From Patescibacteria group bacterium (GTDB lineage Bacteria > Patescibacteriota > Patescibacteriia > UBA9570): 64,000 nt of DNA. Of this stretch, positions 8,090-27,940 are shown in pieces. Within the stretch, counting starts at the first letter, position 1; each line of letters begins with the position of its first letter. The notes below the pieces were generated by a model. That model was not told the origin of the DNA. It saw nothing but the letters and a program-made list of their open reading frames with translations, and made no database searches. The stretch is from the NCBI GenBank assembly GCA_041665365.1, contig JBAYIY010000005.1:5946-69945 (forward strand), written 5' to 3'. The position numbers and the translations under genes are program-made.

Positions 8090-9771
8090 ACTGCTTCTTT
8101 TTGATAACAGTCTTCACAATAGAGAATCTCCTTACGGTCTGGCGAATAGGTTGTTTCAAAGTTCACGGCACAACGGCCTGCATGTTTATGGTCAATTTGT
8201 GTGCACATGCATTGACGCTGCCAGAGCTGGCGAGGATTACGTAAAAATCGACGTTGCAGATGACGACAGTAAAAACAAATATTTGGTAGTGGAATAATAC
8301 GCGCACGGTAATACTCTAGTTCATGGGTGGTAATCTTGTAGTTTTTGCGGCAATTTTGGCAGGCTAGAATTGCAGTCAATATATCATCATTCACTTCCTT
8401 AATATCATCCGGTAAAATGGTCATTGTTTCTTGTCCAACTGTACTAGGTAATTGCTCTTGCCAATGATAGCCCTGAGCTTGTGCCATAGATTGAGTTAGT
8501 GGGAACCACCATTGAGCAGAGGTTTCATTGTAGCCAAATGGACTGATCACCGCAGGAAAGTATTGTCCATATTCACCACGGTCTTGCATGGCCGTTATTA
8601 ACTTAGTACGTAATTCATAATATTCACTCGCCGCATATGACCGATTTAAAATGCAAAATTCTTTTTGTCTTAATGACACAGACCCAAAACAGTTTTTACA
8701 GCCAGATGAGCTGATACAGTATTCCATGTTACTGCTACCATCAAACACTTGGTGACAAAACTTAATGTTATAACAGTTACCCCCGACAATGGTGCAGTCA
8801 TAGATCAATTCGGCATTTAAACCATACTGATAGTAGTCATAACTATCTTTTACGTGCATGGATAACTGCGAACAGAATTTACTGTTCTCCACTTCTCGGC
8901 AATCATAACTAGCCAAGACATTTTTGCTTTGATAAATGTTATTACCGGTGCAATCTTCCGTCTTGTTGCTTTGTTGATATTTGTAAAACCTCGTCACTTG
9001 ATATTGATGTATTTTTTCCAACCAATACTGAACTTGGCTGTGCGAACCAAAATTTATGGCTTCGAGACGATGATTATACTCAACCTCAGTGAGCTGCTTA
9101 TTCAACCAATAATATTTTTGGTTACGTAAACCAACCGATCCAAAGCAATCATGACAACCCACACAATCCTTAAGCATGAAACTGTCCGAACAATTCAAAC
9201 AATCTTGCGACCACTTGAGATTATACGAATCATGACAATCTATACAGTTATAGCAAAGCTCACAGTTGAAATTATTATAACCATCCATGGTATCTTTGGA
9301 TTGTTTTAGGCCGTAAGTGTATAGACAGTTTTCGTTGAGGTCAGCATGAAAGATTAAGTAACAATTTTTATTATCACCGGCATAATTTGTATAATCGCTA
9401 TTTTCATTGTTTCCACCAACATCAGTCGCTTGATGTGGAATACATTGATCAAGTGCTTGCAATTGCGGAAAAAAAGGTTTAGTTAAATCAATCTCACTGC
9501 CATAGTCTAATGGATCCCACTTATCACTCCACCAACAAGCACGACAATATGAAACATAAGGCGAATTTGGTTTATAAATGGTCAGAATTTTTTTGTGACA
9601 CAATTGACACTCTCCTGGATATAAAATCATTTCATTACACCATGTCAGGCGCCGCTGTTGTCGGCAATCTGGACACAAGGTTGGTGCTGGTACAACAATC
9701 TTCTGATAAAAAGCCTGATCGGAATCTGTGATTTGAAAAGTTTTACTGCACTGTTGACATTGTTTGGTCAT
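8086..9771 (-). CDS. Cys-rich double-zinc-ribbon family protein, paralog 2
   Basis: 561 aa. The first 44 residues are near-identical to paralog 1 (MTKQCQQCSKTFQIT.SDQ.FYQKI.VPAPTLCPDCRQQRRL). C-terminal CQNCRKNYKIT...CFYCRH plus RNPRQLWQRQCMCTQIDH...YCEDCY. Confidence 0.8.
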   Translation of the reverse strand: MTKQCQQCSKTFQITDSDQAFYQKIVVPAPTLCPDCRQQRRLTWCNEMILYPGECQLCHKKILTIYKPNSPYVSYCRACWWSDKWDPLDYGSEIDLTKPFFPQLQALDQCIPHQATDVGGNNENSDYTNYAGDNKNCYLIFHADLNENCLYTYGLKQSKDTMDGYNNFNCELCYNCIDCHDSYNLKWSQDCLNCSDSFMLKDCVGCHDCFGSVGLRNQKYYWLNKQLTEVEYNHRLEAINFGSHSQVQYWLEKIHQYQVTRFYKYQQSNKTEDCTGNNIYQSKNVLASYDCREVENSKFCSQLSMHVKDSYDYYQYGLNAELIYDCTIVGGNCYNIKFCHQVFDGSSNMEYCISSSGCKNCFGSVSLRQKEFCILNRSYAASEYYELRTKLITAMQDRGEYGQYFPAVISPFGYNETSAQWWFPLTQSMAQAQGYHWQEQLPSTVGQETMTILPDDIKEVNDDILTAILACQNCRKNYKITTHELEYYRARIIPLPNICFYCRHLQRRFLRNPRQLWQRQCMCTQIDHKHAGRCAVNFETTYSPDRKEILYCEDCYQKEAV

Positions 9772-9800
9772 ACTTCGATAAACTCAGTATAAATAAACTC

Positions 9801-10580
9801 CTATTTACTCGACTCAACGGATTGATGCCACAACGTATAGAAGATATGTGCCTGATGATTGGCTAATTCTTTATTATGAATCGTAATACCAAATAGTTCT
9901 TGCCCGGGGAAAATGTAGGCTACGTGATCGGCGTAAATTAATTGATCACAGGTAGCACCAAGTTGACGCTGGCTTGATTCTGGAATTATTTCCTGAATAG
10001 TACTGCGCGCGACCGTATATGAACCGGAGGTTTCTAGAATCATTTTCAAGTGTAGATCTTTTTCCTTGCTGCGTAACATGATCTCCTCTAAAAATTCTAG
10101 ATACCGGCCATGCAGCGTGGGTGTATAATCCACCGCCGCGAGCACTAATAAATCGTCACCCTTTTTGGAATAAGTTAAAGCCTCATCCCAAATTTTGGCA
10201 ATCGCTTCCTGTGCGCGGAAATAATGAATCTCCAAATCTTCCGGTACTGACGCATAGAGAACATTTAATTCGCCAATTAGATTAGGCATGTCGGTGGCCA
10301 ACTTATCCAAATTGCGGCGCTCTTGTTCAAACACGGTCAGTAATTTAGCCGGTTTGGCCACTTTGCATTTTTGCCCATAGCTGCGCACATCCATATCCGC
10401 TAGCCCCTTTTGATTCAAGACTTTAAAAATATTGTAACCAGTCATGCGGGATAATCCAGCCCGTTCGGCAATTTGCGGAATCGTGGCTAAACCCAACTCT
10501 AATCCGGCCACATAAAATTTTATATCGTTGTCCGTTAAACCAAGTTGTAAAAGATCTTTCTTAATTTTGCTTGTGATCAT
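9801..10580 (-). CDS. TrmB-family transcriptional regulator
   Basis: N-terminal wHTH typical of TrmB (LGLTDNDIKFYVAGLELGLATIPQIAERAGLSRMTGYNIFKVLNQKGL) followed by a C-terminal effector domain. Confidence 0.65.
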   Translation of the reverse strand: MITSKIKKDLLQLGLTDNDIKFYVAGLELGLATIPQIAERAGLSRMTGYNIFKVLNQKGLADMDVRSYGQKCKVAKPAKLLTVFEQERRNLDKLATDMPNLIGELNVLYASVPEDLEIHYFRAQEAIAKIWDEALTYSKKGDDLLVLAAVDYTPTLHGRYLEFLEEIMLRSKEKDLHLKMILETSGSYTVARSTIQEIIPESSQRQLGATCDQLIYADHVAYIFPGQELFGITIHNKELANHQAHIFYTLWHQSVESSK

Positions 10581-10690
10581 AGGTTATCATGTGCCGTAAC
10601 GTGGTCAAACGTGATTATATTTCTACCTGTGGAAAATGAATAAAATAGCTAGCCTTAGGTTAGCAGATTAACCAAACATGTCAAATCAAC

Positions 10691-12307
10691 TTATACTACA
10701 GTTTTTGTATAACAGTCTTCACAATACACTAACTCTTTTCTATCTGGTGAATAAGTGGTTTCAAATTCGGTTTTACAACCAGTATTCATGCATTGTTTAT
10801 GCCATAATTGATACGGCACACGATGTTTCATACGCTCAATATGTCGGCAGTCTGGGCAAATTTCTGGCCAGGGTATGTTCTGAGTGGCGTAAAACTTCAA
10901 TTCTTGCGGAATTAATTTAAAACTCTTGTGACAGTGTGTGCAATCATAAATTTGTTTAGTCGCATCGGCTTTACCATAAGTGCCAGGCAGCTGATCTTGC
11001 CACATCCAACCGCTAGCGCGCGCTTGCGCTTTGGTTAGCGGAAACATTTCTTGGGCCATCGTCTCATTATACGCATAGGTAGACAGCGCCGGCGAAAAGA
11101 ATTGACCCCACTCGCCGGTTTGTTTCATGTGCTCGATTAATTTATCTTTCAGTGTATTATAATCTGTCTCAGAATACTGTTTATTTAAAATGCAATATTT
11201 TTCATTTTTTAAACCAATACAACCAAAACAATTTTCCGGTCCATTTAAACATTGATCACAGTACAAGTTATTTTGCCCATGCCAAACAATATTACAAAAC
11301 CAATTACCATACGCTTGTCCACCACAAGCATGCGCTTCATAGAGCAGCTCGGCTTCTTCACCGTAAACGGTAAAATCGTAGCAATCTTTCGATTGAAAGA
11401 TGCCAAAACAATACGCACAATGTTCTGAGGTTTTTGTTTGAAAGGAAAATGTTGTAGCCAGATTGCCGACTAAATAATCACCACTACTCATCTCATTGCG
11501 TAAACCACGATAATACTTATACGGTACTGTCAGGGTGAATTCATTAAACTCATCACGCGCTCGGTTAATGCCTGCCCGAGTATCTAATTGATAACTAGCT
11601 AACTTTTTAGCATAGTCTTCCGGGTTATATTGCTGATTAAAAATACAATACGATTTGTTCCGTAAACCCACCGACATAAAACAATTTGAACATCCATTAC
11701 AATCTGTTAAAAAATATGAATCGCGACAATTATTAACATGCCACGAGTAATTGACATTGTAACAATCCTCACTATGCGTGGTTTCGTAACACAGCTCACA
11801 TTTGTGGTTATAACTGCAATCAATTGAATCTTTTACATAGTAGATGCCCAACGAATATAAGGAATTTTCACAATCAGTGGCATCGTACACCATGTAACAA
11901 TTCTTTAATCTATAAACGTGATTACAATAATCACTATTTTCCCCGGTGGCATCATTCATTAAAGCAATGCGCGGTACACGCTGTTTGAGCTCTAACAGTT
12001 GATCAAACAACGGTCGCGTAAAATCAATGTCTTGACCATAATCAAGTGGGTTCCATGTATCACTCCACCAACACGTGCGACAATACACTGTATACTTTTT
12101 ATCCGGTGAATACACAGACAAAGTATTATTACCACACACCGCACACTGGCGTTGATATAAAGTATGTTCATTACGATTCGTTAAACGTAATTGAAACCGA
12201 CACGCCGGACACCGTACCGGCTTAGGTACGCCCAAACGCTTGTAATAAGCCTGATCCGCCTCAGTAATGATGAAACTATGTTGACAGTGCTGACAAGTTG
12301 TTTCCAT
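10691..12307 (-). CDS. Cys-rich double-zinc-ribbon family protein, paralog 3
   Basis: 538 aa. METTCQHCQHSFIITEADQAYYKRLGVPKPVRCPACRFQLRL, central Cys dyads, the FGCIGLKNEKYCILNKQYSETDY...GEWGQFF block, and C-terminal CTHCHKSF...CPDCRH...TTYSPDRKELVYCEDCY. Confidence 0.8.
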   Translation of the reverse strand: METTCQHCQHSFIITEADQAYYKRLGVPKPVRCPACRFQLRLTNRNEHTLYQRQCAVCGNNTLSVYSPDKKYTVYCRTCWWSDTWNPLDYGQDIDFTRPLFDQLLELKQRVPRIALMNDATGENSDYCNHVYRLKNCYMVYDATDCENSLYSLGIYYVKDSIDCSYNHKCELCYETTHSEDCYNVNYSWHVNNCRDSYFLTDCNGCSNCFMSVGLRNKSYCIFNQQYNPEDYAKKLASYQLDTRAGINRARDEFNEFTLTVPYKYYRGLRNEMSSGDYLVGNLATTFSFQTKTSEHCAYCFGIFQSKDCYDFTVYGEEAELLYEAHACGGQAYGNWFCNIVWHGQNNLYCDQCLNGPENCFGCIGLKNEKYCILNKQYSETDYNTLKDKLIEHMKQTGEWGQFFSPALSTYAYNETMAQEMFPLTKAQARASGWMWQDQLPGTYGKADATKQIYDCTHCHKSFKLIPQELKFYATQNIPWPEICPDCRHIERMKHRVPYQLWHKQCMNTGCKTEFETTYSPDRKELVYCEDCYTKTVV

Positions 12308-12314
12308 AAGGTGA

Positions 12315-13877
12315 TTAATATATTAGCTTATTGTAACACCCTTCACAATACACTGTTTCTTTTCTATCTGGTGCATAAGTGGTTTCAAACTCTACCTGAC
12401 ACCCTTTATTCATACATTGACGGTGCCATAAGCGACGCGGATTGCGTAATTTCATTCTATCCAAATGTCGGCACTGCGGACAAAGCTGCGGTACTGGCAA
12501 ATGCCATTGCTGATAATAGGCCAGTTCATTAGCAACTAGGCGATAATTTTTCGCACAGCGCTGACAGGTTGGTAGATTATCAACCTGGTTGTCTAGCTGT
12601 TTTGTGACAGTTTCAGCCATAGGAAAATACTCCTGAGCCACTGTGTCTTGATATGGAAATGGCGACAGTGACAATGGAAAAAATTCTCCCCACTCCCCGT
12701 GTTGTGTCATACCTTGTTTAATTTGTTTTACCAAAGTATTATAATCTGTTTCCGAATAAGACTTATTTAAAATACAATATTGTTGTTTACGTAAACCAAT
12801 GCAACCAAATAAATTCTGGCTGGTAAAACAATGATCACAATAAAACAAATTGGAATTCCCATCCCAACAAATATTTAAACCAAGACTGTTTTTAGTCTGT
12901 AAACTACTATGACATTCGTAAGTTAACTCATTCTCAACTCCACCAATAAATAAATCCCGACTGTCCTTTGTTTGCCGCACATCAAATACATAAGCTGTTT
13001 GCTCCTGGTCAATCACATCAAACCCATAAGTAGTTTGGTAACAATTTTTCATTAAATCACCGGAAGATTGTTCACAATTAATTTGCTCACTGGCTAAATG
13101 CGGTAACGCTATTTCTAGTTTAGCTAGTTGAGCGCGATACTGTGCAATCGTTTCATGTGTCCAATTAACCGCCGCTAAACGTGCTCGGTAGTCAGCTTCA
13201 CTTAATTGTTCATTGAACCAACAAAACTTTTTATTGCGCAAATTAACACAGCCAAAACAATCGCTGCAGTTACGACACGCATATGAAAAATAACAATCCC
13301 GACAATTAACACAGCGTTGTGAAAAAAACACTTGATAACAATCACTGCACTCAACTATTTCGTAACACAATTCACAGCGATACGGCATAATAAAATCCAT
13401 ACAGTCACGCGAGTGAAATGGAAACATACCATACAGACAATTTTCATTATCAATGCCACCGGCTGACAAATATAAATTTTTCCCGGCTACTGCCCACGGC
13501 GCATAATCGCAATTTTCACAATTGCGAGTGGTAATGGCCATGCGCGGCACCACTAATTGTAAAGCCCGAATTTGCTCAAAAAAAGATTGACCCGGTTGAT
13601 ATACCCGACCAAAACTAAGTGGATCCCAAACATCAGACAACCAGCAAGTTTGACAGTATATGGTGTATGGGCTATCTGGTGCATATAATGAAATCACTGC
13701 TTTGCCACATAAGCGGCACTTATCTGCGTACAAACTCCGCTCATTCCGCCACGCCAAGCGCCGCTGTTGCCGACAATCTGGACACAAGGTTGGCTGCGGT
13801 ACAGCCATACGTTGATAAAACTCCAGATCGGCTGGATAAATGGTAAATGTTTGCTGACAATTAGTGCACTTACTCAT
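12315..13877 (-). CDS. Cys-rich double-zinc-ribbon family protein, paralog 4
   Basis: The track start is 13904; I prefer Met10 (MSKCTNCQQTF, ATG 13875-13877) by alignment to the other paralogs. That start lies 2 nt after the RelE stop. Same conserved blocks (FGCIGLRKQQYCILNKSYSETDY...GEWGEFFP...; C-terminal CPQCRH...TTYAPDRKETVYCEGCY). Confidence 0.75.
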   Translation of the reverse strand: MSKCTNCQQTFTIYPADLEFYQRMAVPQPTLCPDCRQQRRLAWRNERSLYADKCRLCGKAVISLYAPDSPYTIYCQTCWLSDVWDPLSFGRVYQPGQSFFEQIRALQLVVPRMAITTRNCENCDYAPWAVAGKNLYLSAGGIDNENCLYGMFPFHSRDCMDFIMPYRCELCYEIVECSDCYQVFFSQRCVNCRDCYFSYACRNCSDCFGCVNLRNKKFCWFNEQLSEADYRARLAAVNWTHETIAQYRAQLAKLEIALPHLASEQINCEQSSGDLMKNCYQTTYGFDVIDQEQTAYVFDVRQTKDSRDLFIGGVENELTYECHSSLQTKNSLGLNICWDGNSNLFYCDHCFTSQNLFGCIGLRKQQYCILNKSYSETDYNTLVKQIKQGMTQHGEWGEFFPLSLSPFPYQDTVAQEYFPMAETVTKQLDNQVDNLPTCQRCAKNYRLVANELAYYQQWHLPVPQLCPQCRHLDRMKLRNPRRLWHRQCMNKGCQVEFETTYAPDRKETVYCEGCYNKLIY

Positions 13878-14139
13878 AAACGTCACGCCGATGTCCAACA
13901 TCAAGAATGATTAATTTAATTGTCGAAAAAGATTCATGACTTAATTGTAAAATCACCCGATAATCACCTACCCGCAAACGATGTGTGGCTGGAGCAAAAT
14001 TATGCAACGGTTTTAAAACCGATATTATATCCGGATGGGTTTTAAGCTGTTTTAGTTTGCTGACAATTCGGCTCTGTTGTACGACATGTAATTTTTTGAA
14101 TCGTTTCTCAGCCCACTGACTAAAAACAAAAGTAACCAT
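13870..14139 (-). CDS. type II toxin, RelE/ParE family
   Basis: 89 aa. C-terminal RVGDYRVILQL...LDVGHRRDVYE matches the RelE/ParE core motif. It lies 3 nt downstream of the antitoxin gene. Confidence 0.8.
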   Translation of the reverse strand: MVTFVFSQWAEKRFKKLHVVQQSRIVSKLKQLKTHPDIISVLKPLHNFAPATHRLRVGDYRVILQLSHESFSTIKLIILDVGHRRDVYE

Positions 14140-14141
14140 GT

Positions 14142-14390
14142 TTAAATGACTAAACTACTAAGACCAGATTTAGCTGATTGTTGATAACGCCGTTGCAATT
14201 TTTCAGCATTTTTATTCATGGCAAAATCTTCTAAATAATCACTAATGGTGTCATCACAACCATCAAAATACGGTAACATAACAATTCTACCTTTGCCGTG
14301 ATTGGTGACAATATAGCTTTTGTCTGCAATGGCAGTAGAAATGGTTCCAATGCGTTGTTGTACTTCAGTTGTAGTAATAATACTAGTCAT
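14142..14390 (-). CDS. type II antitoxin, Phd/YefM-like
   Basis: 82 aa with the Phd/YefM-like pattern (TTTEVQQRIGTISTAIADKSYIVTNHGKGRIVMLPYFDG). Upstream of and tightly coupled to the RelE/ParE gene. Confidence 0.55.
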   Translation of the reverse strand: MTSIITTTEVQQRIGTISTAIADKSYIVTNHGKGRIVMLPYFDGCDDTISDYLEDFAMNKNAEKLQRRYQQSAKSGLSSLVI

Positions 14391-14441
14391 AGTTATATTT
14401 TATTTAATATATATTATCGTATACTATTTCATATATTTATG

Positions 14442-16013
14442 TCAAGCTACTATTCTTTGATAACAGTCTTCACAATACACTAACTCTTTTCTATCTGATG
14501 CATAAGTGGTTTCGAATTCGTTTTTACAACCTTTATTCATGCATTGACGATGCCACAAGGTCATTGGGTTTTGAAATTTGAATCGTTCCGCCAGACGACA
14601 GTTTGGGCACAAGTGTGGTTGGGGTAGACGCATCTTTTGATAAAAAGCTAGCTCTTGGGCAATAATCTTAAATGGGTGGGTACACTGGGTGGTTTTGGTT
14701 TCAGTTAATGGAAAATATGCTTGAGCCAAAGTTTCATTATAAGTATACATGGATAAATCTAATGGAAAAAATTCACCATACGTGTATCTCAGACCTTTGG
14801 TATCAACGTACGGCATGTCGATCATGTGTTGTTTAATTTTTTTGACTAGATCGTGGTAAGCAGATGCAGAATACTGTTTATTTAAAATACAATACTGTTT
14901 TTTTCTGACACCGACACAACCGAAGATATCGGCTGAATTTATGGCTAACAGCGCATATTCTAAATTACGACAATCCGGCCAGCTCATGATACTAAATTTC
15001 ACATTGTAAACATTCTCCCCTACCCCCACACATTCATAGGCTCGCTCCACATTATTACCCCAGGATAAATAATCATAAGAGTCACGTATGGGATTAAGCC
15101 CACTTAACATAATGTATTTGCAATTTTCGGCCTGACTAACTTGATAAGCCTGATAAGTATGTCTAGAATTATCAACATAATCGCCAGACACACTGTCATT
15201 TTTTTTACCATGCATGTATTTTACTGGGTATTGCAACCAATTATTACTCGCTTCAGTTTTGAGCCGGTGTATTTCAGTATTAGATGTAAAGTCTACGCTC
15301 GCTAATTTAGCCAGGTAGGTGTCTTTATCCAGTGGCTGATTAAACCAATAATAATTTTGATTATGCAAATTAGCTGACCCAAAACAATTGGTGCAACCAA
15401 CTAAATTTCGTGAAAAATATATATCACTAGAATCATTACAATCAATCGAGTAAAAGGTGCGATAACATTTTTTTATGTTACTACTCCAATAACACAATTC
15501 CGACTCGTCAACCATGTTGCAATCAAAACAATCTTTAGATTTAGTGATATTATCGCAATAATAAGAATCTTCGACATAATCAGAATGAAACACCAGATAA
15601 CAATTTTTTAAATGACCCACATTCATACAGTAGTCACTATTCTCCAATGTGGGAGTGTCAGAGCATAATGCCATCAAGGGCACGCGCTGCATGAGTTGTT
15701 TAAATTGTGTAAAAAACGGTTTAGAAAAATCATAGTCAGTGCCATATGTCATCGCCTCCCACTGGTCAGACCACCAACAAGTGTTACAGTACACTGTATA
15801 AGGTTTATCTGAGGAATACATTGATAACATTGACTTACCGCATAAATCACACTGGTCTTGATACAACGACCGCATGTTATAAAAACTCAACCGCCGAATT
15901 AACCGACACTGTGGACACCACGTGGGTGGTGGCACAGCCATTTGTTTATAAAAATCTAAATCCATTTGATCAAGCACAAAGCGTTGCTGACAGCGAACAC
16001 ATTGTTTAATCAT
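14442..16013 (-). CDS. Cys-rich double-zinc-ribbon family protein, paralog 5
   Basis: 523 aa. MIKQCVRCQQRFVLDQMDLDFYKQMAVPPPTWCPQCRLIRRL, Cys dyads, FGCVGVRKKQYCILNKQYSASAY, and a C-terminal CPNCR...NPMTLWHRQCMNKGC...TTYASDRKELVYCEDCY. Its start overlaps the stop of the 923-aa gene (ATGA). Confidence 0.8.
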   Translation of the reverse strand: MIKQCVRCQQRFVLDQMDLDFYKQMAVPPPTWCPQCRLIRRLSFYNMRSLYQDQCDLCGKSMLSMYSSDKPYTVYCNTCWWSDQWEAMTYGTDYDFSKPFFTQFKQLMQRVPLMALCSDTPTLENSDYCMNVGHLKNCYLVFHSDYVEDSYYCDNITKSKDCFDCNMVDESELCYWSSNIKKCYRTFYSIDCNDSSDIYFSRNLVGCTNCFGSANLHNQNYYWFNQPLDKDTYLAKLASVDFTSNTEIHRLKTEASNNWLQYPVKYMHGKKNDSVSGDYVDNSRHTYQAYQVSQAENCKYIMLSGLNPIRDSYDYLSWGNNVERAYECVGVGENVYNVKFSIMSWPDCRNLEYALLAINSADIFGCVGVRKKQYCILNKQYSASAYHDLVKKIKQHMIDMPYVDTKGLRYTYGEFFPLDLSMYTYNETLAQAYFPLTETKTTQCTHPFKIIAQELAFYQKMRLPQPHLCPNCRLAERFKFQNPMTLWHRQCMNKGCKNEFETTYASDRKELVYCEDCYQRIVA

Positions 16014-18781
16014 ATATTTTTCAGCTCATTTAGTCTTTTTTTCACTCTTTCATGAACTGATTGAGCCACGGCTGATTTATCTGAATCCATAAAACAACTC
16101 TCTAGTCTGGTTAATATACTAGATTGCGTTACAGCTTCACCAGCCCCAAATACTCGTTTTCTAATGGCAAGATTAATTTCACGTATTACTATTTTTTTTA
16201 ATTCTTGTGCCAGTGCTCTAACTTGATTTGGTAATAATACTAACACCGCTTTTTGAAGATTATCTATTGATCCAGGGATCAATTTCTTTACTTCAGCAGT
16301 TGTAGAGTTATGCTGAAACATTACTACACCTGACCAAAGGGCAGCTCTGTAATCTTCTTGGTAACACAGACGCAGAGACAATTGATCAATTGCCTGTTCA
16401 CCCTGTTGCATGCTAATAAAACCAGGATCATTTGGAATATATTGTTCAGCTAAACGAAATAACTTTGTCTGCCAATCATGTTTGTAATTTATTATATTAT
16501 CAAAATATATATTATCAAAAAGATTAGGATCATCATCTCTCATTTTTTTTAAAGTATCTCTCCACTGATCTAAAGTTGTAATTCTATCTATTTTTTTTGT
16601 TTTAGGTTGGCCTTCTTCATAAACTGTAACTTCTTGTGCTTCAAGTGGTTTGGCAAACTCAAGTAAGGCATTATACTTTGGATCAAATAATTTTTGTAAT
16701 AAAACTTTCCGGTCGGCTTCGGGCATGGCTTCAATAATCGCCTCAAAATCACCCTCGCGTACTATTCTACCCCATTGTTCTACAAATTGATCAGGTGTTA
16801 CGATGCGTTGTAGTACCCGATATATCGCTCCCGGTTCACCGTTTGGTCGGTAATTATAAATTGTCTCTATATATTTTTTAAATTTCTCTGATTCTGGAAC
16901 ATTTGGGTCATCTTCAATAAGACGTTGCCCAATAATAAACACTTTACTATCTACTTCTTTCGCCATCGCATAAAGTCTAGTTGGTTTAAGAATTTTTCGC
17001 CAAACTGCTGCCACAGTTTTTGGTTTAACCCCCTGTCTTTTTTGCCAGGCACGACGTGCTCGTTGAAACGTAGATTCATCTTTCATAGCTTGCGCCTCAC
17101 GTTCTACTAATCCATCATACCATTTCAACCATTGTTCTTGAGTGATATTTGGATGCGCTTCCCATACATCTCTTAATCCAAGTTGACGATCCAGTCGATG
17201 TAGTCTTTGTTCTTTAGTCAAATCATGCTGAAATTCATCACACAGTAACGCTGTATCAGATACAGTTTCCCAAATTTGTAAGCGCATATCTTCAAATATA
17301 GGTCCAGTTAGGGTTTTTAATTTCATAGTTCCAACACGAGCCTCTTTAATTTTTTTAATCTCAGGATCATTTTGCATAACTTCAGGTAAACTATTCCAAG
17401 TAGCAAAAAATACATCTGGAGTACCAGTTTTAAGACGGTGTAGAGTTCTTTCACGTTCGGCAAAGGAGACAACTTTCAACATGGCTTCAAGATCATGGCG
17501 GATTTTGTACCCCGGCATAAACTGCATATACATACCAGCTAACAACACTGGGTGAACTGTTTGCTCAGTGGCCGCTTGTCTAAATTGAGCATCAATAGTG
17601 CGCATGGCAGCATCAGAGATGGCGGTTAATTCCGGCATGGGGGTATCAACCTCAAGTAAGGCTTCAACTCGTTTTTTAAATAGTTGTAGACCTTCATTAT
17701 CTTCTGGAATGGATAAATGTAATGACCGATATAAGGCGAGATGAAACACATTACCAAATACCCCACTGCGAGCGGCGGTTGGCTCGGCATAATCATGGCC
17801 AGGGGTAACGCCGATCATTTGTAAAAACAATAATGGATTAGTAGCTTTAACTTTTTCAGCAGCATTAAGTAAGGCAATAACATCTTCAGAATCACCATGG
17901 GCAAAGTGTAGCGTGGCGCGATAATCAGCCAGTTCAGCTGGAGACATGTCGTCTCGTAATAGCTTACTGTGTTCATCAATCCAAGTAATCAGCGTTTGAT
18001 AAGCCGCGTGATCCGGGGCATGTTCTAAATCATAGGCTAAAGTATCTGATCGACGCCGTAATTCATTGGGTAAAGTACGTGGTGCCCTATCACGCCTGAT
18101 CTCTAATCTGGTTTGCCAATAGTCTTGATGAGTTGCACCATCTAATGGATCAATTTCTCCCACCCATTTAATAGCTTCTTTACCGGGATGAACCGGGGTA
18201 GTGAAATCTAAAATTGGAAAAGTAGGATCTTGGTCATGCACTGCCTGCATCAAACCAAATAATGAAGTGACGCGTTCGGCACCGGCTTCCCCCCTGTATA
18301 GACCAGTTTGAACAGCATCTAAAACATCAATCGTTCTAATCAGTTCCTGTAGATTATAAAATTTTGGGTTTAATTCACCAATTAAATATCCTTGTAAGGT
18401 GCGTAGTTGAGTTTGTTCAGCTGGGTTTAATGGTGCACCATTTCCTGCCGCGCGATAGAGTAATGCTGGATACGATGTATTTACAGCAAAAGCCTCTAAG
18501 CGTGTTTCAATGTCCCCCACTAATACCACTGCATCAGACTTATCCGCTACTCGTCTGGATAAACTCTCTAAGGCTCCATCGTTGGTACCAGTTCTAAAAG
18601 TAACATCTAAAACTTGCTGCGCCGACTTAGGTGGGACAGTTTTGATCTCATCTTTAACTATTTCTACACCAGTATCGGCAGGTTGCAATTTACGACCTGT
18701 ATCCACAGTTCTTGCTTGTTTTCCTCTTCTCCCTCTACCTCGAGTTTCTACAGACATAATTACTCCAACAAGTCTTTCCAA
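16010..18781 (-). CDS. large hypothetical protein (923 aa), Arg-rich N-terminus
   Basis: Long uninterrupted ORF with the same codon usage as its neighbours. Basic N-terminus (RGRGRRGKQARTVDTGRK). Predicted soluble and helical. No motif I recognise. Translationally coupled at both ends. Confidence 0.7.
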   Translation of the reverse strand: MERLVGVIMSVETRGRGRRGKQARTVDTGRKLQPADTGVEIVKDEIKTVPPKSAQQVLDVTFRTGTNDGALESLSRRVADKSDAVVLVGDIETRLEAFAVNTSYPALLYRAAGNGAPLNPAEQTQLRTLQGYLIGELNPKFYNLQELIRTIDVLDAVQTGLYRGEAGAERVTSLFGLMQAVHDQDPTFPILDFTTPVHPGKEAIKWVGEIDPLDGATHQDYWQTRLEIRRDRAPRTLPNELRRRSDTLAYDLEHAPDHAAYQTLITWIDEHSKLLRDDMSPAELADYRATLHFAHGDSEDVIALLNAAEKVKATNPLLFLQMIGVTPGHDYAEPTAARSGVFGNVFHLALYRSLHLSIPEDNEGLQLFKKRVEALLEVDTPMPELTAISDAAMRTIDAQFRQAATEQTVHPVLLAGMYMQFMPGYKIRHDLEAMLKVVSFAERERTLHRLKTGTPDVFFATWNSLPEVMQNDPEIKKIKEARVGTMKLKTLTGPIFEDMRLQIWETVSDTALLCDEFQHDLTKEQRLHRLDRQLGLRDVWEAHPNITQEQWLKWYDGLVEREAQAMKDESTFQRARRAWQKRQGVKPKTVAAVWRKILKPTRLYAMAKEVDSKVFIIGQRLIEDDPNVPESEKFKKYIETIYNYRPNGEPGAIYRVLQRIVTPDQFVEQWGRIVREGDFEAIIEAMPEADRKVLLQKLFDPKYNALLEFAKPLEAQEVTVYEEGQPKTKKIDRITTLDQWRDTLKKMRDDDPNLFDNIYFDNIINYKHDWQTKLFRLAEQYIPNDPGFISMQQGEQAIDQLSLRLCYQEDYRAALWSGVVMFQHNSTTAEVKKLIPGSIDNLQKAVLVLLPNQVRALAQELKKIVIREINLAIRKRVFGAGEAVTQSSILTRLESCFMDSDKSAVAQSVHERVKKRLNELKNI

Positions 18782-20823
18782 GATACTTTATTGGCTGGCG
18801 CATTGATTTGCGGTGGAGTGATTGGTTTTGGTTTAACCGGTTGTGGTTGTACAGGTTTATTTGGTTGCGGTGGTACCTGTTGGGGCAATTCACCACCTCT
18901 ATTTCGCCGTCGTCGGCGCCGTTTGCGTTTTTGTCCATCACCGGTTGGAGTTGGTTGAACATTCTGTGGTTTTGGTTGTTGAACCACGGGTTTTTCCAAA
19001 ACAACACGTGGAGCCGTACCATTTTTTAATGCCTGTAGGGGCAATTCATGAATTGCCCCTACAGGGTGAATTGGTTCAATCTCATCATCCGGCACATCTT
19101 CGAACTCATCATCATTATCTTCATCAACAACCAGATCAACTTTCTTACTCCCCTCTCCTGCAGAAGGAGAGGGGCTGGGGGCGAGGTCTCTCAATTGATG
19201 ATTAATAAAACTAATCCGTGGCCGAGTTGATGCATTATTATTTTCTACTTCATCTTCTTTAATAGCTTTTGCTAATTCGACTACTGCTGGTTTATTTGGT
19301 TTTGTTTGTTCAACTTGAATTGGCTTAGCTGGTACTTCACCGGGAATAAAATTACTGGTATCAACCTGCCCATTAGTTGCTTCGGCTTCATTGACGGTTA
19401 GCTGTACACCCTCTTTAGACATTTTAGCTGGTTTGTCATCGTCTGATAATTCAGGTTCAGCAGCGGTGATAATTTGATCCGGCCAATCCATCTCATCGTC
19501 TTTGGGTGAGGTTGTTGGAGCTATCTCGGGGTTAACATTGGGTCGATTAATTTGTACGCCACTCCAACGAATAATCCGATCTTCCACCACGGCTTGAGGG
19601 CGAGCATACCGTTCGCGTGAGACTTTAATCACTTTGTCTTTATTGTCGGTGGCACCGGTGGCTGGTGGTAAACCAATAGCTGAGAATGGTTCGGTGGCCA
19701 CACCATCAACCATTAAACGCATGCAAACAGTATATTTTTTCAGATTAACAATATCGGCTGGTAAAAACTGTGGCGCGAATTCTAACTCTAACTCGGCAGC
19801 ATCAGTTGCACCCACTCGAAACACAATCATTGTCCCGACGTTACCAAACACAGCGGCTTTTACCACATCACCTAATTGTTCAAAATACTGATGCGCCATG
19901 ATTAAACACAAGCGATATTTTCTGGCTTCAGATAAAATTCCAGCAAAACTATCGGTGGCGAAATTTTGAAACTCATCAACATATAAATAGAAATCTTTCC
20001 GCTCCTCTTCTGGAATATCTACCCGGCTCATGGCCGCAATTTGCAATTTTGTAATCATCATGGCTCCCAGCAAGGCCGAATTTTCTTCACCAATTCTGCC
20101 TTTAGCCAGATTCATAATTAAAATCTTCTGATTGTCCATCACATCACGCATCTCGATAGTGCTCTTCGATTGTCCGACAATGTTACGAATAATCGCTGAA
20201 GCTAAAAACTGACCGACTTTGTTTTGAATTGGCGCAATCGCTTCAGTTCTAAATTTTTCTGAATAATTGGCGTATTCATCGGCCCAAAAGGTTTTCACCA
20301 CTGGGTCGGTCACTTTATCAACCACTTTTTTACGATAGGCTTTATCGACCAACATGCGCATTAAACCCAACAACGTGCTGCCGGGATATTCTAATAACGC
20401 CAAAATGGTATTGGTCATAATGTACTCCATGCGTGGTCCCCAAGAATCAGCCCAGATTTTCTTGAACACACCCACTAAACCATAGGCCACTAGATGTTTA
20501 TAATCTTCGCCAATACTTTCTAAAATATTAAACGCAATCGGATATTTGGTATCAGACGGATTAAAGTAGATCACATCATTAACCCGATTAGTGGGAATGA
20601 ACTCTAAAATCTTTTCGGCTAAATCACCATGTGGGTCAACTACGGCTACGCCATGCCCAGCCCGAATATCACTAATAATCGCATTTTCCAACATGGTGGA
20701 TTTACCCATGCCGGTCTTACCCACTAAATACATATGCCGGCGCCGATCATCCCGTTTAATACCAAATTTACGCCGTTGGTTACGGAAGTTAGTTTCGGCA
20801 AAGACGGCAATTTCGCTGGACAT
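18760..20823 (-). CDS. P-loop ATPase, TraD/VirD4 (type IV coupling protein)/HerA-FtsK-like
   Basis: Walker A MYLVGKTGMGKST and Walker B FYLYVDEFQNF. T4CP-like motifs VVDPHGD and LIMAHQYFEQL. The ~200-aa C-terminal tail is disordered, Pro/Asp/Glu-rich, and ends in KRKRRRRRRNRGG plus a P/Q-rich repeat. Confidence 0.75.
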   Translation of the reverse strand: MSSEIAVFAETNFRNQRRKFGIKRDDRRRHMYLVGKTGMGKSTMLENAIISDIRAGHGVAVVDPHGDLAEKILEFIPTNRVNDVIYFNPSDTKYPIAFNILESIGEDYKHLVAYGLVGVFKKIWADSWGPRMEYIMTNTILALLEYPGSTLLGLMRMLVDKAYRKKVVDKVTDPVVKTFWADEYANYSEKFRTEAIAPIQNKVGQFLASAIIRNIVGQSKSTIEMRDVMDNQKILIMNLAKGRIGEENSALLGAMMITKLQIAAMSRVDIPEEERKDFYLYVDEFQNFATDSFAGILSEARKYRLCLIMAHQYFEQLGDVVKAAVFGNVGTMIVFRVGATDAAELELEFAPQFLPADIVNLKKYTVCMRLMVDGVATEPFSAIGLPPATGATDNKDKVIKVSRERYARPQAVVEDRIIRWSGVQINRPNVNPEIAPTTSPKDDEMDWPDQIITAAEPELSDDDKPAKMSKEGVQLTVNEAEATNGQVDTSNFIPGEVPAKPIQVEQTKPNKPAVVELAKAIKEDEVENNNASTRPRISFINHQLRDLAPSPSPSAGEGSKKVDLVVDEDNDDEFEDVPDDEIEPIHPVGAIHELPLQALKNGTAPRVVLEKPVVQQPKPQNVQPTPTGDGQKRKRRRRRRNRGGELPQQVPPQPNKPVQPQPVKPKPITPPQINAPANKVSWKDLLE

Positions 20824-20825: not shown

Positions 20826-22319
20826 TTATACAAATGGTAAATTAGATGGCGCTTCTGGTTCGACTTTAATTGCTGGAGTTGCGGGAGATGTTTGAGTTGT
20901 TGGTGTTTCCATGACGGGTTCAACCATGACGACAGGTTTAACAGTAACACCACCGCCTTTTTCTAACTGCACCGGAATGGCAGCACTAGCCTCAGCTTCA
21001 TCATAGCGCAATAACGTCGGCGGTTCCACACCACGCGATTGCGCCTTAGCCACATACGGCGCTCGCACATCAATTGACGGAAAGTGAAATAAAGCCGTAA
21101 TCTCTTCGGTTGATAAAATAAACCCTTCATGTTCACCTCGTTCCATGTCGCGTGACTTATATGCCCAATACATCCGGCGATAACGATTCAATACCCGATA
21201 CTTTGGAAATACAAACCGCCAAGATAAACAATTTTGATCAGTCCGCGTAATTTCACCCTCAGTAAAAGAATTAATATAACGATACAAACGCAAACCGCTT
21301 AACATACCACGACGAACTTTTTTGGAATCAACCATAGCCGGTGGAGCAAAATACATAAAGCGCACTTTTGAATGAAACGGCCAACGCGAGGCTTTTTTAT
21401 CAACTTCCTCAACAAATTCCTGTTCTGGTTTAGTCATACGCTGTCTTTCTTCTAAACGAGTATCATCGTGTGTTTCGGCCGCCGCTGATTCACCGCCAAA
21501 CAGAGCCTGATTAGTCATTTGCAGTGTTGATATGACAGTAGATTGAACGTGATCCATAATATCCGGGCCAGCATGGCCAGATTTGCCTGGCTCAACTAGA
21601 TTCATGATGGTTTCTTGTGCCCGGATTTTAAGTTTACCAAGATCGGCTGGTTGAATCATAATTTGATACCACAATTTTTCACCGGGTTGCAAGCGACTCA
21701 TAAATTCCAAAAGGTTGGCAAATGGATCAACCGCCTTCTGCGCTAAACTATGTTCAAACGCCGGATAAGGTTTAATCGGTAAAACATCGTCACCTTCCAA
21801 ACGCATCTCTGATCCCCATCCGGTCACTTTACGAGAATTAATCATTTCTAATGAGATATCTTTCGTATAATCTTCGACTTCAGACATGATGGCATCGGGG
21901 TAATGAGAATAAAATGCCGCCTGCACCATTTCTTTATAATATTTTGGAGCACGTACATAATAAGTAATATAGCCACCATCACTGACAATTTCGAAAGAGT
22001 ATTGCTCTTGTACAAAACCCAACCACCAAGTTTCGTACCAATCGGGTTGGTTATAAATACCATGCAGTTGTACAAAAATCTGTTCTACTGCCTTCATACT
22101 CTGCTCATTGTTCAGCGGCACTTCAATGCGATACATGACATGTTTGGTATGGTGTTTAAACTTTTCTTGAATCCAAAACAACCAACCGGTAAAGGCCATT
22201 TTTATCATGATCGGTATAAAAATCAATGCCCCACCATGACCAAGCAAAAACCATAACGCTTGAAACGGGTTATTGCCGTACTCTTTTAAAATATATTCAA
22301 GCAGCGGGGGCATACACAA
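20826..22319 (-). CDS. membrane-anchored hypothetical protein (497 aa)
   Basis: Two N-terminal TM helices (ALWFLLGHGGALIFIPIMI / FTGWLFWI), a large soluble domain and a low-complexity Pro/Thr-rich C-terminus. It ends 3 nt before the ATPase gene starts. Confidence 0.7.
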   Translation of the reverse strand: MCMPPLLEYILKEYGNNPFQALWFLLGHGGALIFIPIMIKMAFTGWLFWIQEKFKHHTKHVMYRIEVPLNNEQSMKAVEQIFVQLHGIYNQPDWYETWWLGFVQEQYSFEIVSDGGYITYYVRAPKYYKEMVQAAFYSHYPDAIMSEVEDYTKDISLEMINSRKVTGWGSEMRLEGDDVLPIKPYPAFEHSLAQKAVDPFANLLEFMSRLQPGEKLWYQIMIQPADLGKLKIRAQETIMNLVEPGKSGHAGPDIMDHVQSTVISTLQMTNQALFGGESAAAETHDDTRLEERQRMTKPEQEFVEEVDKKASRWPFHSKVRFMYFAPPAMVDSKKVRRGMLSGLRLYRYINSFTEGEITRTDQNCLSWRFVFPKYRVLNRYRRMYWAYKSRDMERGEHEGFILSTEEITALFHFPSIDVRAPYVAKAQSRGVEPPTLLRYDEAEASAAIPVQLEKGGGVTVKPVVMVEPVMETPTTQTSPATPAIKVEPEAPSNLPFV

Positions 22320-23391
22320 CAGTATAACGACCGTCTGGTAATTTACTAAATAATCGACGATTAGTGAGGGCTAAATGAATGGTATTTTTTTTCACAATCC
22401 GTTGTTCCAATACGGCTGTGACAAGTTGATCGCGTGTTAATGGACCACGCTCGGTTAAGATTTTTTTCACAATATCAGCTACGGCGCCTTTTTCGTAACC
22501 CCACTCCTTAAGAGCATAAATGCCACGACCCACTAACACATACTGGCTATTTAAAATTAATTCATTATGCACCGTGGGTGGATGGGCTTCTTTTTTAAAA
22601 ACTTCGGTAATTTGCTGAGCAATGTCGACAAAATGCATCGGTTTACTTACTTTTTTCAAAATTAAATAGATTTTATCATTCATGCGTTTTGGTACCACGC
22701 TCCCCCACGCCCGTAAACCGTATTCATCAAATGGATTATGATCGATCGCATCACTCACTTCCAATAAAGCGATAATAGTTTTTTCAGTTAATCTTGCATC
22801 AGGTGGAATTAGGTTCATAATACCAGCTACATTGAGAGGGATATTGGCCGTACCAATAGTGCGCACTAACAAATCGAGCGACTCGGTAATAAACTTGATG
22901 TCAGCGGTCTTAATGCGCCAACTTTTCATAAAAGTTTTGTCCGGACCGACTGACATTACCCGTGCACTGAGCAATTCAGTCAAAATAAACACTAAAGCCG
23001 CCTCCAGTTCGACCGTACTTTTTTCCAATAAAACCTCACTTAATAAATGGCTCTCTTGCATGATACCCCCGTGCTCTTCCAAGGTGGTTAGAATAACATG
23101 CTCAATCGGTTTTAAAACTACTTGTAAACTTGGATGTAATTTAATTTTACTCACAGCTAGGTTTTCGATCTGACGAATCCGTTCCCGAGTCACGGTATAT
23201 GATACTCCGATCGCTTCTAGGGTTTCTTTTGGTACACCATTTAATCCGTAACGCCGCTGTAACACATCAGCTTCTTTATCATTTAATTTGGCTAAAAGTA
23301 CACGAACAACATCACCAGGTTCAAACTCCTGTTTTTCTTGATCCTCTTTGCTCGCAATAATGCGATCAAGAATAGAAACTCCCATATCCAT
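22297..23391 (-). CDS. sigma-70 region 4 domain protein with a ~290-aa C-terminal extension (non-canonical sigma-like DNA-binding protein)
   Basis: Residues ~35-85 (DVLQRRYGLNGVPKETLEAIGVSYTVTRERIRQIENLAVSKIK) are a textbook sigma-70 region 4.2 HTH. No region 2 or 3 is recognisable. Overlaps the downstream gene by 23 nt. Confidence 0.75.
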   Translation of the reverse strand: MDMGVSILDRIIASKEDQEKQEFEPGDVVRVLLAKLNDKEADVLQRRYGLNGVPKETLEAIGVSYTVTRERIRQIENLAVSKIKLHPSLQVVLKPIEHVILTTLEEHGGIMQESHLLSEVLLEKSTVELEAALVFILTELLSARVMSVGPDKTFMKSWRIKTADIKFITESLDLLVRTIGTANIPLNVAGIMNLIPPDARLTEKTIIALLEVSDAIDHNPFDEYGLRAWGSVVPKRMNDKIYLILKKVSKPMHFVDIAQQITEVFKKEAHPPTVHNELILNSQYVLVGRGIYALKEWGYEKGAVADIVKKILTERGPLTRDQLVTAVLEQRIVKKNTIHLALTNRRLFSKLPDGRYTVVYAPAA

Positions 23392-26524: not shown

Positions 26525-27916
26525 TTATGGAACATTTATTACAACATCGCCCACTTGACCCCAATTATACAACCATTCGGCATTGGTCGCATCAATGTTA
26601 ATACAACCATGACTCATTTTGTGACCAAAGTTGTGATGCCAGTAGGCATAGTGTAGGTGAAATGGTCCAGAAAAACGTAGGTTCCATTTGACGTTCTTTA
26701 AATCATAGTTATCAGGATTGTTTGTACCATAATTCCAGGTATAATCTTTCATGAATATTTTTTCTTGCACAGCAAATTGACCAAGCGGTGTGGGATATTT
26801 ATCAATCCCGGTGGAAACATAAAACTCTCGGACTAATTCACCATATTCGTAGACGCGCGTTTTTTGTTCGGATATATCAGTTTCAATATAGCGAATTAAA
26901 TCCGCTCGGCCTTGGGCGCGATTCTTGCCCGGGACGGTTACGACGTCAATCTTACCATCGCCAGTCACATCACCCAGTGCCAGGTTTAAGCCACCGCGAA
27001 AATCTGCTGGGTAAGCAAAAAAACTTTTACTGGTGTTCGCTCCATACCCTTCAAAAAAAATAACTTGTGGGCCACCACTTTGCCGAGGCGTAACCGCTAC
27101 TTCAGCCATACCATCATGATCAATGTCACCCGCGGCTACATTAGTACCACTATATAATCCGGAAAAAGCTTTCCAGTTCCCTAATATGTCACCGTTATTT
27201 TTATAAACTTTCACCCAATCTTCACCGGCTGAATAAATTGACATGACCAGTTCATCATCTTTACCACCATCCACATTGGCGGTTGTTATAGCGACACCAC
27301 CAACATTGTCACTGGCAAAAGGATGAAACTCAGTCCCCAAAAAACGACCTTTACGCGAAAACACGCGCACATCCGCAGCACCCCCTGGGCCGGCCGCGAC
27401 CGCTATTTCAGAAATGCCATCGCCGTTATAATCACCCACGGTAACATCACAGCCACCGCGAAAATTAGAAGCAAACGCAAAAAAACCTGGGCCAAATACA
27501 CTTTTGCCCGCAGCATCAAACACCCGCACCTGTGGCCCACCGCCAGCACCAACTCCGGTGATAATCTCCGCTTTACCATCGTGGTTCAAATCACCGGTGG
27601 CAACTTTTACACCAGTGCGTAAAGACTGATCGTAAGCAAACCACTGTGATACTAACGTACCGTCACCTTCAAACACTTGCACCATTGGGCCACCGTCCCG
27701 GCCGGCTCCAACCACAATTTCATCAACTCCATCGCCATCCACATCACCCACTGCTACATCAAGACCACCATCAAAACTACCATTGAGGGCGTTAAAACTA
27801 GTAGTTTGATTAAAAGATTTATCAAATACTCGTACCTCGGGTGCCATACTATCGTAGGCCAAGGTCAGCACTGGAAAACACAAACTAAGTGTTATTACTA
27901 GACCATATTTATGCAT
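26525..27916 (-). CDS. FG-GAP repeat protein fused to a C-terminal L,D-transpeptidase (YkuD) domain
   Basis: Signal peptide, then repeated GDVDGDGVDEIVVGAG..GGP.V.VF units (FG-GAP/VCBS). C-terminal YkuD catalytic motif YWHHNFGHKMSHGCINIDATNAEWLYNW. Confidence 0.8.
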   Translation of the reverse strand: MHKYGLVITLSLCFPVLTLAYDSMAPEVRVFDKSFNQTTSFNALNGSFDGGLDVAVGDVDGDGVDEIVVGAGRDGGPMVQVFEGDGTLVSQWFAYDQSLRTGVKVATGDLNHDGKAEIITGVGAGGGPQVRVFDAAGKSVFGPGFFAFASNFRGGCDVTVGDYNGDGISEIAVAAGPGGAADVRVFSRKGRFLGTEFHPFASDNVGGVAITTANVDGGKDDELVMSIYSAGEDWVKVYKNNGDILGNWKAFSGLYSGTNVAAGDIDHDGMAEVAVTPRQSGGPQVIFFEGYGANTSKSFFAYPADFRGGLNLALGDVTGDGKIDVVTVPGKNRAQGRADLIRYIETDISEQKTRVYEYGELVREFYVSTGIDKYPTPLGQFAVQEKIFMKDYTWNYGTNNPDNYDLKNVKWNLRFSGPFHLHYAYWHHNFGHKMSHGCINIDATNAEWLYNWGQVGDVVINVP

Positions 27917-27940
27917 GGCGCTAGTGTAGCAGGTTCAGTC

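Follow-up and report, generated by a model that had tools for sequence, protein, structure and literature searches.

A VirD4-like ATPase without a membrane anchor, its DUF8128 partner and its motif-bearing tail: a candidate split coupling protein of Patescibacteria

Type IV coupling proteins (T4CPs), such as TrwB of R388, VirD4, TraD of F and DotL/IcmO, have an N-terminal transmembrane (TM) segment in the same polypeptide as the ATPase and are linked to relaxase and mating-pair-formation genes. The C-terminal tail of TraD binds TraM, and that of DotL binds adaptor proteins. A large part of bacterial diversity belongs to the Patescibacteria, which depend on other cells. In the survey by Quiñonero-Coronel et al. 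2025 (PMC12102498), 2,918 of 3,035 of their genomes (96%) have T4CP homologues and 2,417 (80%) have VirB4, and 148 of the 5,713 VirD4-type homologues lie near virB4. Here, we analyze a stretch of 64,000 nucleotides (nt) from a Patescibacteria group bacterium (contig JBAYIY010000005.1, hereafter the window), whose ATPase gene at 18760..20823 on the minus strand almost certainly encodes one of the homologues counted in that survey. We propose, with a probability of roughly 0.55, that this ATPase is the motor subunit of a two-gene, split T4CP-like translocase that is chromosomal and near-universal in Patescibacteria, the tail serving to recruit partners or nucleic acid. The gene and its core motifs are located as follows.

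18760..20823, minus strand: whole ATPase gene, 687 amino acids (aa), ATG start, stop codon at 18760-18762
19549..20823, minus strand: ATPase core, residues 1-425
20695-20721, minus strand: Walker A, GKTGMGKST, residues 35-43
19972-19992, minus strand: Walker B, FYLYVDE, residues 278-284

The protein is a P-loop ATPase of the TrwB/VirD4 family; its Walker motifs are intact, and it lacks a TM segment of its own (the maximum 19-residue Kyte-Doolittle mean is 1.45). The TrwB_AAD_bind family (PF10412), to which T4CPs also belong, covers residues 25-344 with 52.2 bits against a cut-off of 20.5, and the closest sequences in the PDB are TrwB, the best match (1.2e-5), and DotL. The matches to TraG-D_C and DUF87 barely exceed the Pfam cut-offs (23.4 against 23.2 for DUF87), and NCBIfam gave just sub-threshold partial matches to TraD, VirD4-like, CedD and VirB4 models. 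The Walker lysine (GK at residues 40-41) and the DE of Walker B (283-284) are invariant among aligned homologues. An initial annotation, made from the sequence alone, had described a T4CP/HerA-like ATPase without a TM domain and had left room for a confident fit of the core to a family other than T4CPs; the description holds, and PF10412 and TrwB remain the best matches.

AlphaFold confidence is high over most of the core. Two short strands only precede Walker A, a helical block that may correspond to the all-alpha insert of T4CPs occupies approximately residues 106-230, and 328 residues align with TrwB. The modelled fold also resembles DNA translocases, e.g., HerA and FtsK, and does not by itself tell T4CP, HerA and FtsK-type families apart. 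The motor domain of FtsK/SpoIIIE and its gamma winged helix are not found in the ATPase. We favor the T4CP branch because of the sequence profiles and of the relaxase-linked fused relatives described below. More than 8,000 homologues exist; counts on “close homologues” refer to the 120 listed, which share 55-88% identity with the ATPase across the aligned core. One related locus (L022, positions 1-1224) has a second, more divergent paralogue of the core (hidden Markov model [HMM] E 5e-128) about 9 kb upstream from the main one, in agreement with the approximately two T4CP-like genes per genome given in PMC12102498.

The hydrophobic anchor that T4CPs have in the same polypeptide is found here on the product of the gene directly upstream.

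20826..22319, minus strand: DUF8128 (PF26449) gene, 497 aa, its stop codon 2 nt ahead of the ATPase ATG
20826-20990, minus strand: C-terminus of the DUF8128 protein, with the peptide PSNLPF

This protein has a hydrophobic N-terminal segment at approximately residues 20-50 and a disordered tail; it belongs to DUF8128, since an identical NCBI/JGI protein (P0121, 495 aa, 100%) carries a precomputed PF26449 assignment, as do 65 of 83 other homologues. We found no papers on this domain. The predicted fold (predicted local distance difference test score [pLDDT] 86) has a sole strong structural match, VirB4/TrwK: two independent structure searches both single out TrwK/VirB4 of R388, and the top 13 Foldseek matches are all TrwK/VirB4 chains with probability 1.00. 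A PDB sequence search with the DUF8128 profile gave no match. Because the DUF8128 protein lacks a P-loop, the likeness is presumably to the N-terminal domain of VirB4, the aligned part of VirB4 not being given in the search output. If this is the domain matched, the combination of membrane segment, DUF8128 and ATPase would parallel VirB3-VirB4 fusions. Each half has a match to VirB4 at the level of fold, on two polypeptides, and none at the level of sequence. Nearly all DUF8128 homologues (24-70% identity) end in (A/P)P(S/P)NLP(F/I), preceded by a disordered linker of 0 to approximately 100 residues. This terminal peptide looks like a docking peptide left from the linker of a fused form. Longer DUF8128 proteins bear an extra internal copy of the motif, VEPPTxL.

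Such fused forms exist on plasmids. In tblastn searches against plasmids, both queries matched single Bacillaceae proteins of 833-883 aa, annotated as “DUF87 domain-containing protein.” With hhalign, the DUF8128 profile matches residues 52-314 of the 833-aa protein of pBM69 (98.7%, E 3.7e-16) and the ATPase profile matches residues 342-717 (99.9%, E 1.3e-32); neither profile matches the VirB4 of the same plasmid. Since a single plasmid protein matches both profiles, the patescibacterial DUF8128 protein and ATPase are a split form of a T4CP-like class with a VirB4-like N-domain. The proteins of pBM69 and of a Shouchella clausii plasmid (WP_003349917.1 and WP_248290882.1) contain both halves; they differ from the window proteins in being single, plasmid-borne polypeptides without an obvious TM segment as annotated, at approximately 27-29% identity. 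On both plasmids, the fused gene lies between primase-C and replication-relaxation (relaxase-family) genes, upstream of conjugal-transfer genes and of a separate VirB4-sized ATPase, and in pBM69 also upstream of a lytic transglycosylase gene. This is the site where a coupling protein would be, beside a relaxase and a Gram-positive type IV secretion system (T4SS) cluster, a linkage seen in these fused relatives only and not among the 25 window ORFs scanned. These data suggest a Gram-positive class of coupling proteins, previously unremarked, in which a VirB4-like N-domain replaces the usual TM domain. A genuine, separate VirB4 coexists with the fused protein on the plasmids, and sequence comparisons do not place the module in the VirB4 family (1.6% for the pBM69 VirB4 in hhalign; 17 bits against a cut-off of 590 for the NCBIfam model VirB4_plasma).

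In the tails of the plasmid fusions, a long acidic stretch precedes a short basic patch, which is followed by KKKEHISVDDLLV or RRKRDDKDVSIDDLLV. They terminate in ISVDDLLV and VSIDDLLV (ΦSΦDDLLV), which is the same order as in the tail of the window ATPase. A Priestia megaterium megaplasmid encodes a fusion of TM segment, DUF8128 and ATPase that is apparently frameshifted. In this stretch of pFDU301A (L089, 2925-8059), which is unannotated in the record, the fused gene seems interrupted, with open reading frames (ORFs) at 5744-7348 and 7580-8059. Near it are a small pilin-like ORF with two TM segments, two sigma-factor-like genes and, judged by eye, a possible response-regulator/ParA-type protein. 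The closest plasmid match, a copy with 42% identity on a Sulfitobacter plasmid, is solitary, tail-less and surrounded by transposases, and is uninformative.

The C-terminal tail of the window ATPase contains the following elements, with conservation judged from an alignment of 15 close homologues.

18763..19548, minus strand: disordered C-terminal tail, residues 426-687 (262 aa), delimited by composition and pLDDT
19477..19500, minus strand: motif DDEMDWPD, residues 442-449, conserved within the closest clade (DxMDWPD)
19336..19350, minus strand: motif FIPGE, residues 492-496, with I493 and P494 almost invariant
19207..19224, minus strand: motif RPRISF, residues 534-539, with P535, I537 and F539 invariant
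19072..19137, minus strand: acidic block DLVVDEDNDDEFEDVPDDEIEP, residues 563-584
18997..19044, minus strand: motif LPLQALKNGTAPRVVL, residues 594-609, fitting the family consensus ISLxALKxGxxPxVxF
18904..18930, minus strand: poly-basic patch KRKRRRRRR, residues 632-640, followed by NRGG
18763..18792, minus strand: C-terminal peptide NKVSWKDLLE, residues 678-687, fitting the family motif TKVSLxDLL

The composition and sequence of residues 426-687 agree with the long acidic/Pro-rich tail and poly-Arg patch first noticed by the initial annotation, and each of the strings that it quotes, DDEFEDVPDDEIEP, KRKRRRRRRNRGG and PQQVPPQPNKPVQPQPVKPKPITPPQ, is found in the sequence. The tail has 14.5% Pro, 16.4% Asp plus Glu and 13% Lys plus Arg, a net charge of -9, and neither Tyr nor Cys; the 40-residue block at 561-600 that encloses the acidic block has a net charge of -12. 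DDEFEDVPDDEIEP is followed by KRKRRRRRRNRGG at residues 632-644 and by a Pro/Gln-rich stretch. The AlphaFold pLDDT is below 50 nearly throughout residues 429-687, the exceptions being the extreme C-terminus and residues 590-610 (~67), the sole non-terminal segment with raised confidence, which corresponds to the region of LPLQALKNGTAPRVVL and has a short helix at 596-600.

Judging from the alignment, the tail is built of short conserved motifs and is more than low complexity. The order DxMDWPD, FIPGE, RPRISF, ISLxALKxGxxPxVxF, K/R run, TKVSLxDLL is kept through the aligned C-terminal peptide in 13 of the 15 homologues, R633, R635 and R637 are invariant in the K/R run, and the sequence between motifs is poorly conserved. 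Nearly all of the 120 listed homologues bear a tail, of 57-443 aa where the end of the core could be located, so the possibility raised earlier that relatives would uniformly lack it is not borne out; close homologues keep both the tail and its motif order, and among them the poly-Arg patch as well. Tails in other patescibacterial clades end in LxPGQxIxF instead, and ISLxDALxxxPVxF recurs in many tails.

The reading frame is intact up to the stop codon, since the terminus KVSWKDLLE is in register with those of relatives. Identical protein is found in NCBI, JGI and ENA records (90-kb contig, Patescibacteria metagenome-assembled genome [MAG]). We excluded a frameshift or assembly artefact, as homologues align with the tail to its last residues. 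The DNA of the tail contains a single weak 15-nt tandem repeat only. Low complexity of this DNA had been offered as the reason for the many antisense ORFs; it hardly accounts for them, because the density of plus-strand stop codons is not lower in the tail (3.1%, two best frames) than in the core (2.8%, best frame).

The poly-basic patch raises a separate question, that of how general it is. A run of nine K/R residues has a chance expectation of ~7e-6 for a protein of such size and composition. Counting runs of six or more, the patch is present in 47 of the 120 close homologues and in 7 of 75 complete genes from species-representative genomes; a zinc ribbon (CxxC-x17-CxxC, PF23477) is found in 50 of the 75. 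Hence, the poly-Arg patch is the minority state and the zinc ribbon the commoner alternative. Among the 120 close homologues, 46 have the K/R run only, 35 the zinc ribbon only, one has both and 38 have neither, so that the two are seldom found together (Fisher p = 9e-9, uncorrected for phylogeny). Members of the zinc-ribbon family in small proteins of Methanosarcina were shown to bind zinc (PMC12704099). In the window protein, RPRISF may be a relic of the zinc-ribbon hairpin T+VSFKPDG of other clades. A zinc ribbon or poly-K/R patch in the tail also sets this family apart from T4CPs.

The window itself encodes, at 6458-16013 on the minus strand, five tandem Cys-rich paralogues of approximately 520-560 aa.

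14442-16013, minus strand: Cys-rich paralogue, N-terminal treble-clef zinc finger zf_Tbcl below the Pfam cut-off
12315-13904, minus strand: Cys-rich paralogue, zf_Tbcl over the cut-off
10691-12307, minus strand: Cys-rich paralogue, zf_Tbcl over the cut-off and a sub-threshold zf_Tbcl_2 match
8086-9771, minus strand: Cys-rich paralogue, zf_Tbcl over the cut-off
6458-8089, minus strand: Cys-rich paralogue, zf_Tbcl over the cut-off

A gene for a TrmB-like helix-turn-helix (HTH) protein at 9801-10580 breaks the array. The zf_Tbcl_2 domain is the same as that in the tails of most ATPase homologues. Cys-rich arrays downstream of the ATPase are confined to the closest clade (L001, L002, L004, L006 and L007), where the poly-K/R tails also concentrate. 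We rejected these arrays as conserved partners, given that they are present in 5 of 80 loci, all in that clade.

Synteny was assessed in these 80 loci, which come from a scan of species-representative genomes and are all Patescibacteria-type MAGs. The recurrent order is SecD, SecF, a sigma70-region-4 protein, the DUF8128 protein and the ATPase. A DUF8128 homologue lies directly upstream of the ATPase in 63 (tblastn) or 64 (HMM) of the loci, the sigma4/HARE gene is present in 54 and SecDF in 37-38. Genes downstream of the ATPase show no conservation, and relaxase or mating-pair-formation genes are not among the conserved neighbors. The window copy of the third member of this order is the following.

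22297..23391, minus strand: upstream neighbor, a predicted DNA-binding protein with sigma-70 region 4 and a weak HARE-HTH match below threshold

Across the 80 loci, the best-segment identity of the ATPase is 57-87%, mostly within the core and at times into the tail. Where the loci are shared, SecD has 24-81%, SecF 44-75%, sigma4/HARE 31-70% and DUF8128 26-66%, and the ATPase outranks these four at nearly every locus. The core of T4CPs of mobile elements is usually far less conserved, and the module further differs from T4CPs in being chromosomal and near-universal in the phylum. The window, which encodes SecA, LepA, MurJ, Mur ligases and RNase P RNA, is core chromosome. Many loci with the Patescibacteria-type ATPase (L001, L003, L007, L012 and some 25 more) come from MAG records of GTDB representatives whose titles read “uncultured Gammaproteobacteria bacterium” or, in one case each, Planctomycetota and Bdellovibrionales. 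Most of these oddly titled records show the SecDF - sigma4/HARE - DUF8128 - ATPase order, and the Planctomycetota record the ATPase only. The titles look unreliable.

How could such a module work? In the mechanism that we envisage, DUF8128 would tether the ATPase ring to the cytoplasmic membrane, its C-terminal PSNLPF peptide replacing the lost covalent linker. By analogy with the extensions of TraD and DotL, which serve as recruitment platforms, the 262-residue tail of the ATPase could act as a flexible recruitment arm. Its short motifs and terminal ΦSΦxDLL peptide would dock partner proteins, and the arm may hold a module that binds nucleic acid or other anions; this would be a zinc ribbon in most lineages and KRKRRRRRR here. 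The arm would then hand a DNA or nucleoprotein substrate to the motor. Most likely, the module serves the T4SS that Patescibacteria encode separately, or a related step in crossing the envelope; a housekeeping role of its own comes close to this in likelihood. We keep both T4SS coupling and housekeeping in consideration because of the published T4CP and VirB4 counts, the scarce linkage to virB4 and the non-essentiality reported for a homologue.

The proposal of a split coupling protein should be weighed against several observations. The t4cp homologue of S. epibionticum, whose orthology to the window ATPase is unconfirmed, was read as non-essential by transposon sequencing and the T4SS as essential, according to PMC12102498. 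In the same source, T4CP homologues occur in more genomes than VirB4, and an obligate T4SS role is therefore disfavored. The tie between DUF8128 and VirB4 is at the level of fold only, the profile missing the plasmid VirB4. A Pfam search of 25 mainly larger ORFs of the window found no relaxase, VirB4, VirB6 or pilin; the window ORFs were otherwise scanned with the ATPase-core, DUF8128 and zinc-protein profiles only, so smaller T4SS components may have escaped. The zinc ribbon precedes the ISL motif and the K/R patch follows it, and the two are not positional equivalents. Finally, distant Paceibacteria pair a gene for a sigma4-domain protein with DUF8128 without an adjoining ATPase, which suggests that the sigma4 DNA-binding protein and the DUF8128 membrane protein are the older pair. 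In two such loci (L082, 5879-8419, and L084, 5884-8257), sigma70_r4 and DUF8128 genes are adjacent and follow a leucyl/isoleucyl-type tRNA synthetase; MnmA or YceG comes next instead of the ATPase, and a faint HARE-HTH match is seen in L084 only.

Among the alternatives, the one that survives best, although we consider it somewhat unlikely, is a T4SS-independent housekeeping DNA translocase, i.e., a membrane-tethered FtsK- or SftA-like motor for segregation, DNA uptake or export. In it, the sigma4/HARE-HTH protein would serve as the adaptor that recognizes DNA, and DNA would be held by the basic patch or the zinc ribbon. The higher conservation of the ATPase than of SecD and SecF at nearly every shared locus is in line with such a role, and so are the core-chromosome setting, the predicted DNA-binding neighbor kept in 54 of 80 loci, the fold shared with HerA and FtsK, and the presence of homologues of this ATPase type in 96% of genomes against 80% for VirB4 in the survey (PMC12102498). 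Several points argue otherwise. The nearest relatives with informative context adjoin a relaxase. Saccharibacteria TM7x, at least, appears to have ftsK, which is reportedly mentioned in TM7x transcriptome papers, and a simple replacement of FtsK is therefore unlikely. The non-essentiality reported for the S. epibionticum homologue (PMC12102498) is also at odds with this role.

A broader variant, which is unlikely and which we put forward tentatively, makes the trio of sigma4/HARE-HTH protein, DUF8128 protein and ATPase an ancient, phylum-wide housekeeping translocase, independent of conjugation and possibly of the T4SS, with the pBM69-type T4CPs as its fused, mobilized relatives. If so, DNA or nucleoprotein would be moved across or along the membrane, e.g., for nucleotide scavenging, genome segregation or exchange with the host cell, and the zinc ribbon or poly-Arg module of the tail would seize nucleic acid.

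Polybasic clusters are known as membrane tethers. One could suppose that the poly-Arg patch and the C-terminal amphipathic peptide mainly target the ATPase to anionic lipids, making up for the missing TM segment, with the patch having no part in binding a substrate or nucleic acid. The basic cluster and the hydrophobic/acidic end peptide do resemble such tethers, the ATPase has no TM segment, and the pBM69-type fusions, also without an obvious one as annotated, retain the basic patch and the DLL peptide. We regard this as improbable nonetheless: a dedicated partner with a hydrophobic segment is encoded 2 nt upstream, most lineages have a zinc ribbon or no basic run, and the LxPGQxIxF terminus of other clades looks strand-like and not like an amphipathic helix.

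More improbable still is a HerA/DptH-type ATPase of an anti-phage defense or repair system. PADLOC gave weak matches to mad8 (2e-13) and HerA, and found no NurA, Sir2, DUF4297 or DptFG among the five operon proteins; the matches being weak, we rejected membership in a defense system. HerA proteins have a HAS-barrel and a nuclease or effector partner, which were not found here, and the DUF87 match is barely at its cut-off. A near-universal, syntenic and highly conserved gene is also the opposite of what is seen in patchy defense islands.

The last explanation involves the DNA itself and is best considered with the gene that follows the ATPase, for which two rows are relevant.

16010..18757, minus strand: downstream protein (the “923-aa” ORF), 915 aa from a probable ATG at 18757
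18719-18742, minus strand: RGRGRRGK patch of the downstream protein

The initial annotation had taken the Arg-rich start of this protein and the poly-Arg patch of the ATPase for two adjacent basic tails around a coupling junction, with the two ORFs overlapping by 22 nt. The overlap arises from a TTG start at 18781 that was assigned mechanically; 2 nt after the stop codon TAA of the ATPase comes the ATG at 18757, with GGAG 5 nt upstream of it (junction TTGGAGTAATTATG). The start given by NCBI lies 17 codons inside this ATG, yielding 898 aa, and would leave out RGRGRRGK, whose codons are purine-rich and Shine-Dalgarno-like. The ATG is supported by a homologue, P0209, that aligns from query residue 3. 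A word-indexed search with the 923-aa protein retrieved only itself, but a full HMMER search gave 50 distant homologues (E<=1e-3, 347-1413 aa, 25-50% identity), and we rejected the idea of an ORFan. The family is fast-evolving, and the protein has no Pfam or NCBIfam match. The majority of the 50 homologues have an acidic N-terminus, not a basic one, and many have an N-terminal motif like P(K/R)T(A/P)EELIxAT. The one homologue with readable context, P0206, has no such ATPase adjacent, and no homologue of the 923-aa protein is found downstream of the ATPase in the 80 related loci. The second basic stretch is thus dependent on the start codon and shared neither by the family nor by synteny, and we rejected paired basic tails as a system. 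We conclude that the juxtaposition of the two stretches is incidental, as is the Arg-rich beginning of the downstream protein, because it is start-dependent, the homologues have acidic N-termini and the neighbors are not conserved. As for the ATPase tail being an assembly or frameshift artefact or low-complexity drift, with the basic stretches as by-products of purine-rich DNA, this is already refuted: in its favor are the purine-rich codons of RGRGRRGK, omitted by the NCBI start, and the poor conservation between motifs; against it are a frame open to an alignable C-terminal peptide, tails in nearly all listed homologues, at least five motifs conserved in order, the same tail grammar in Bacillaceae plasmid proteins and the low chance expectation of the K/R run.

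Other features of the window were noted on the way. Two paralogues encoded on the minus strand combine FG-GAP repeats with YkuD L,D-transpeptidase domains, and a third protein has FG-GAP repeats only. The RNase P RNA is overlapped by a plus-strand mechanical ORF at 60916-61485, which is probably spurious.

26525-29335, minus strand: FG-GAP repeats fused to a YkuD domain
46730-48574, minus strand: paralogue with FG-GAP repeats fused to a YkuD domain
60880-61230, minus strand: bacterial RNase P RNA class A, 204.8 bits

Concerning published work, Wang et al. 2023 (Cell) leave the coupling protein unnamed in the main text. The 2025 survey left the role of the patescibacterial VirD4-like ATPases open, and term searches of its text gave no description of the DUF8128 partner, the SecDF - sigma4/HARE - DUF8128 - ATPase order, the fused counterparts or the tail motifs (PMC12102498). 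What our analysis adds for these ATPases is a membrane protein of VirB4-like fold as a conserved partner, plasmid-borne fused counterparts beside a relaxase, a predicted DNA-binding neighbor and a defined set of tail motifs. Orphan coupling proteins thereby gain concrete handles on which motif binds what and on what is translocated.

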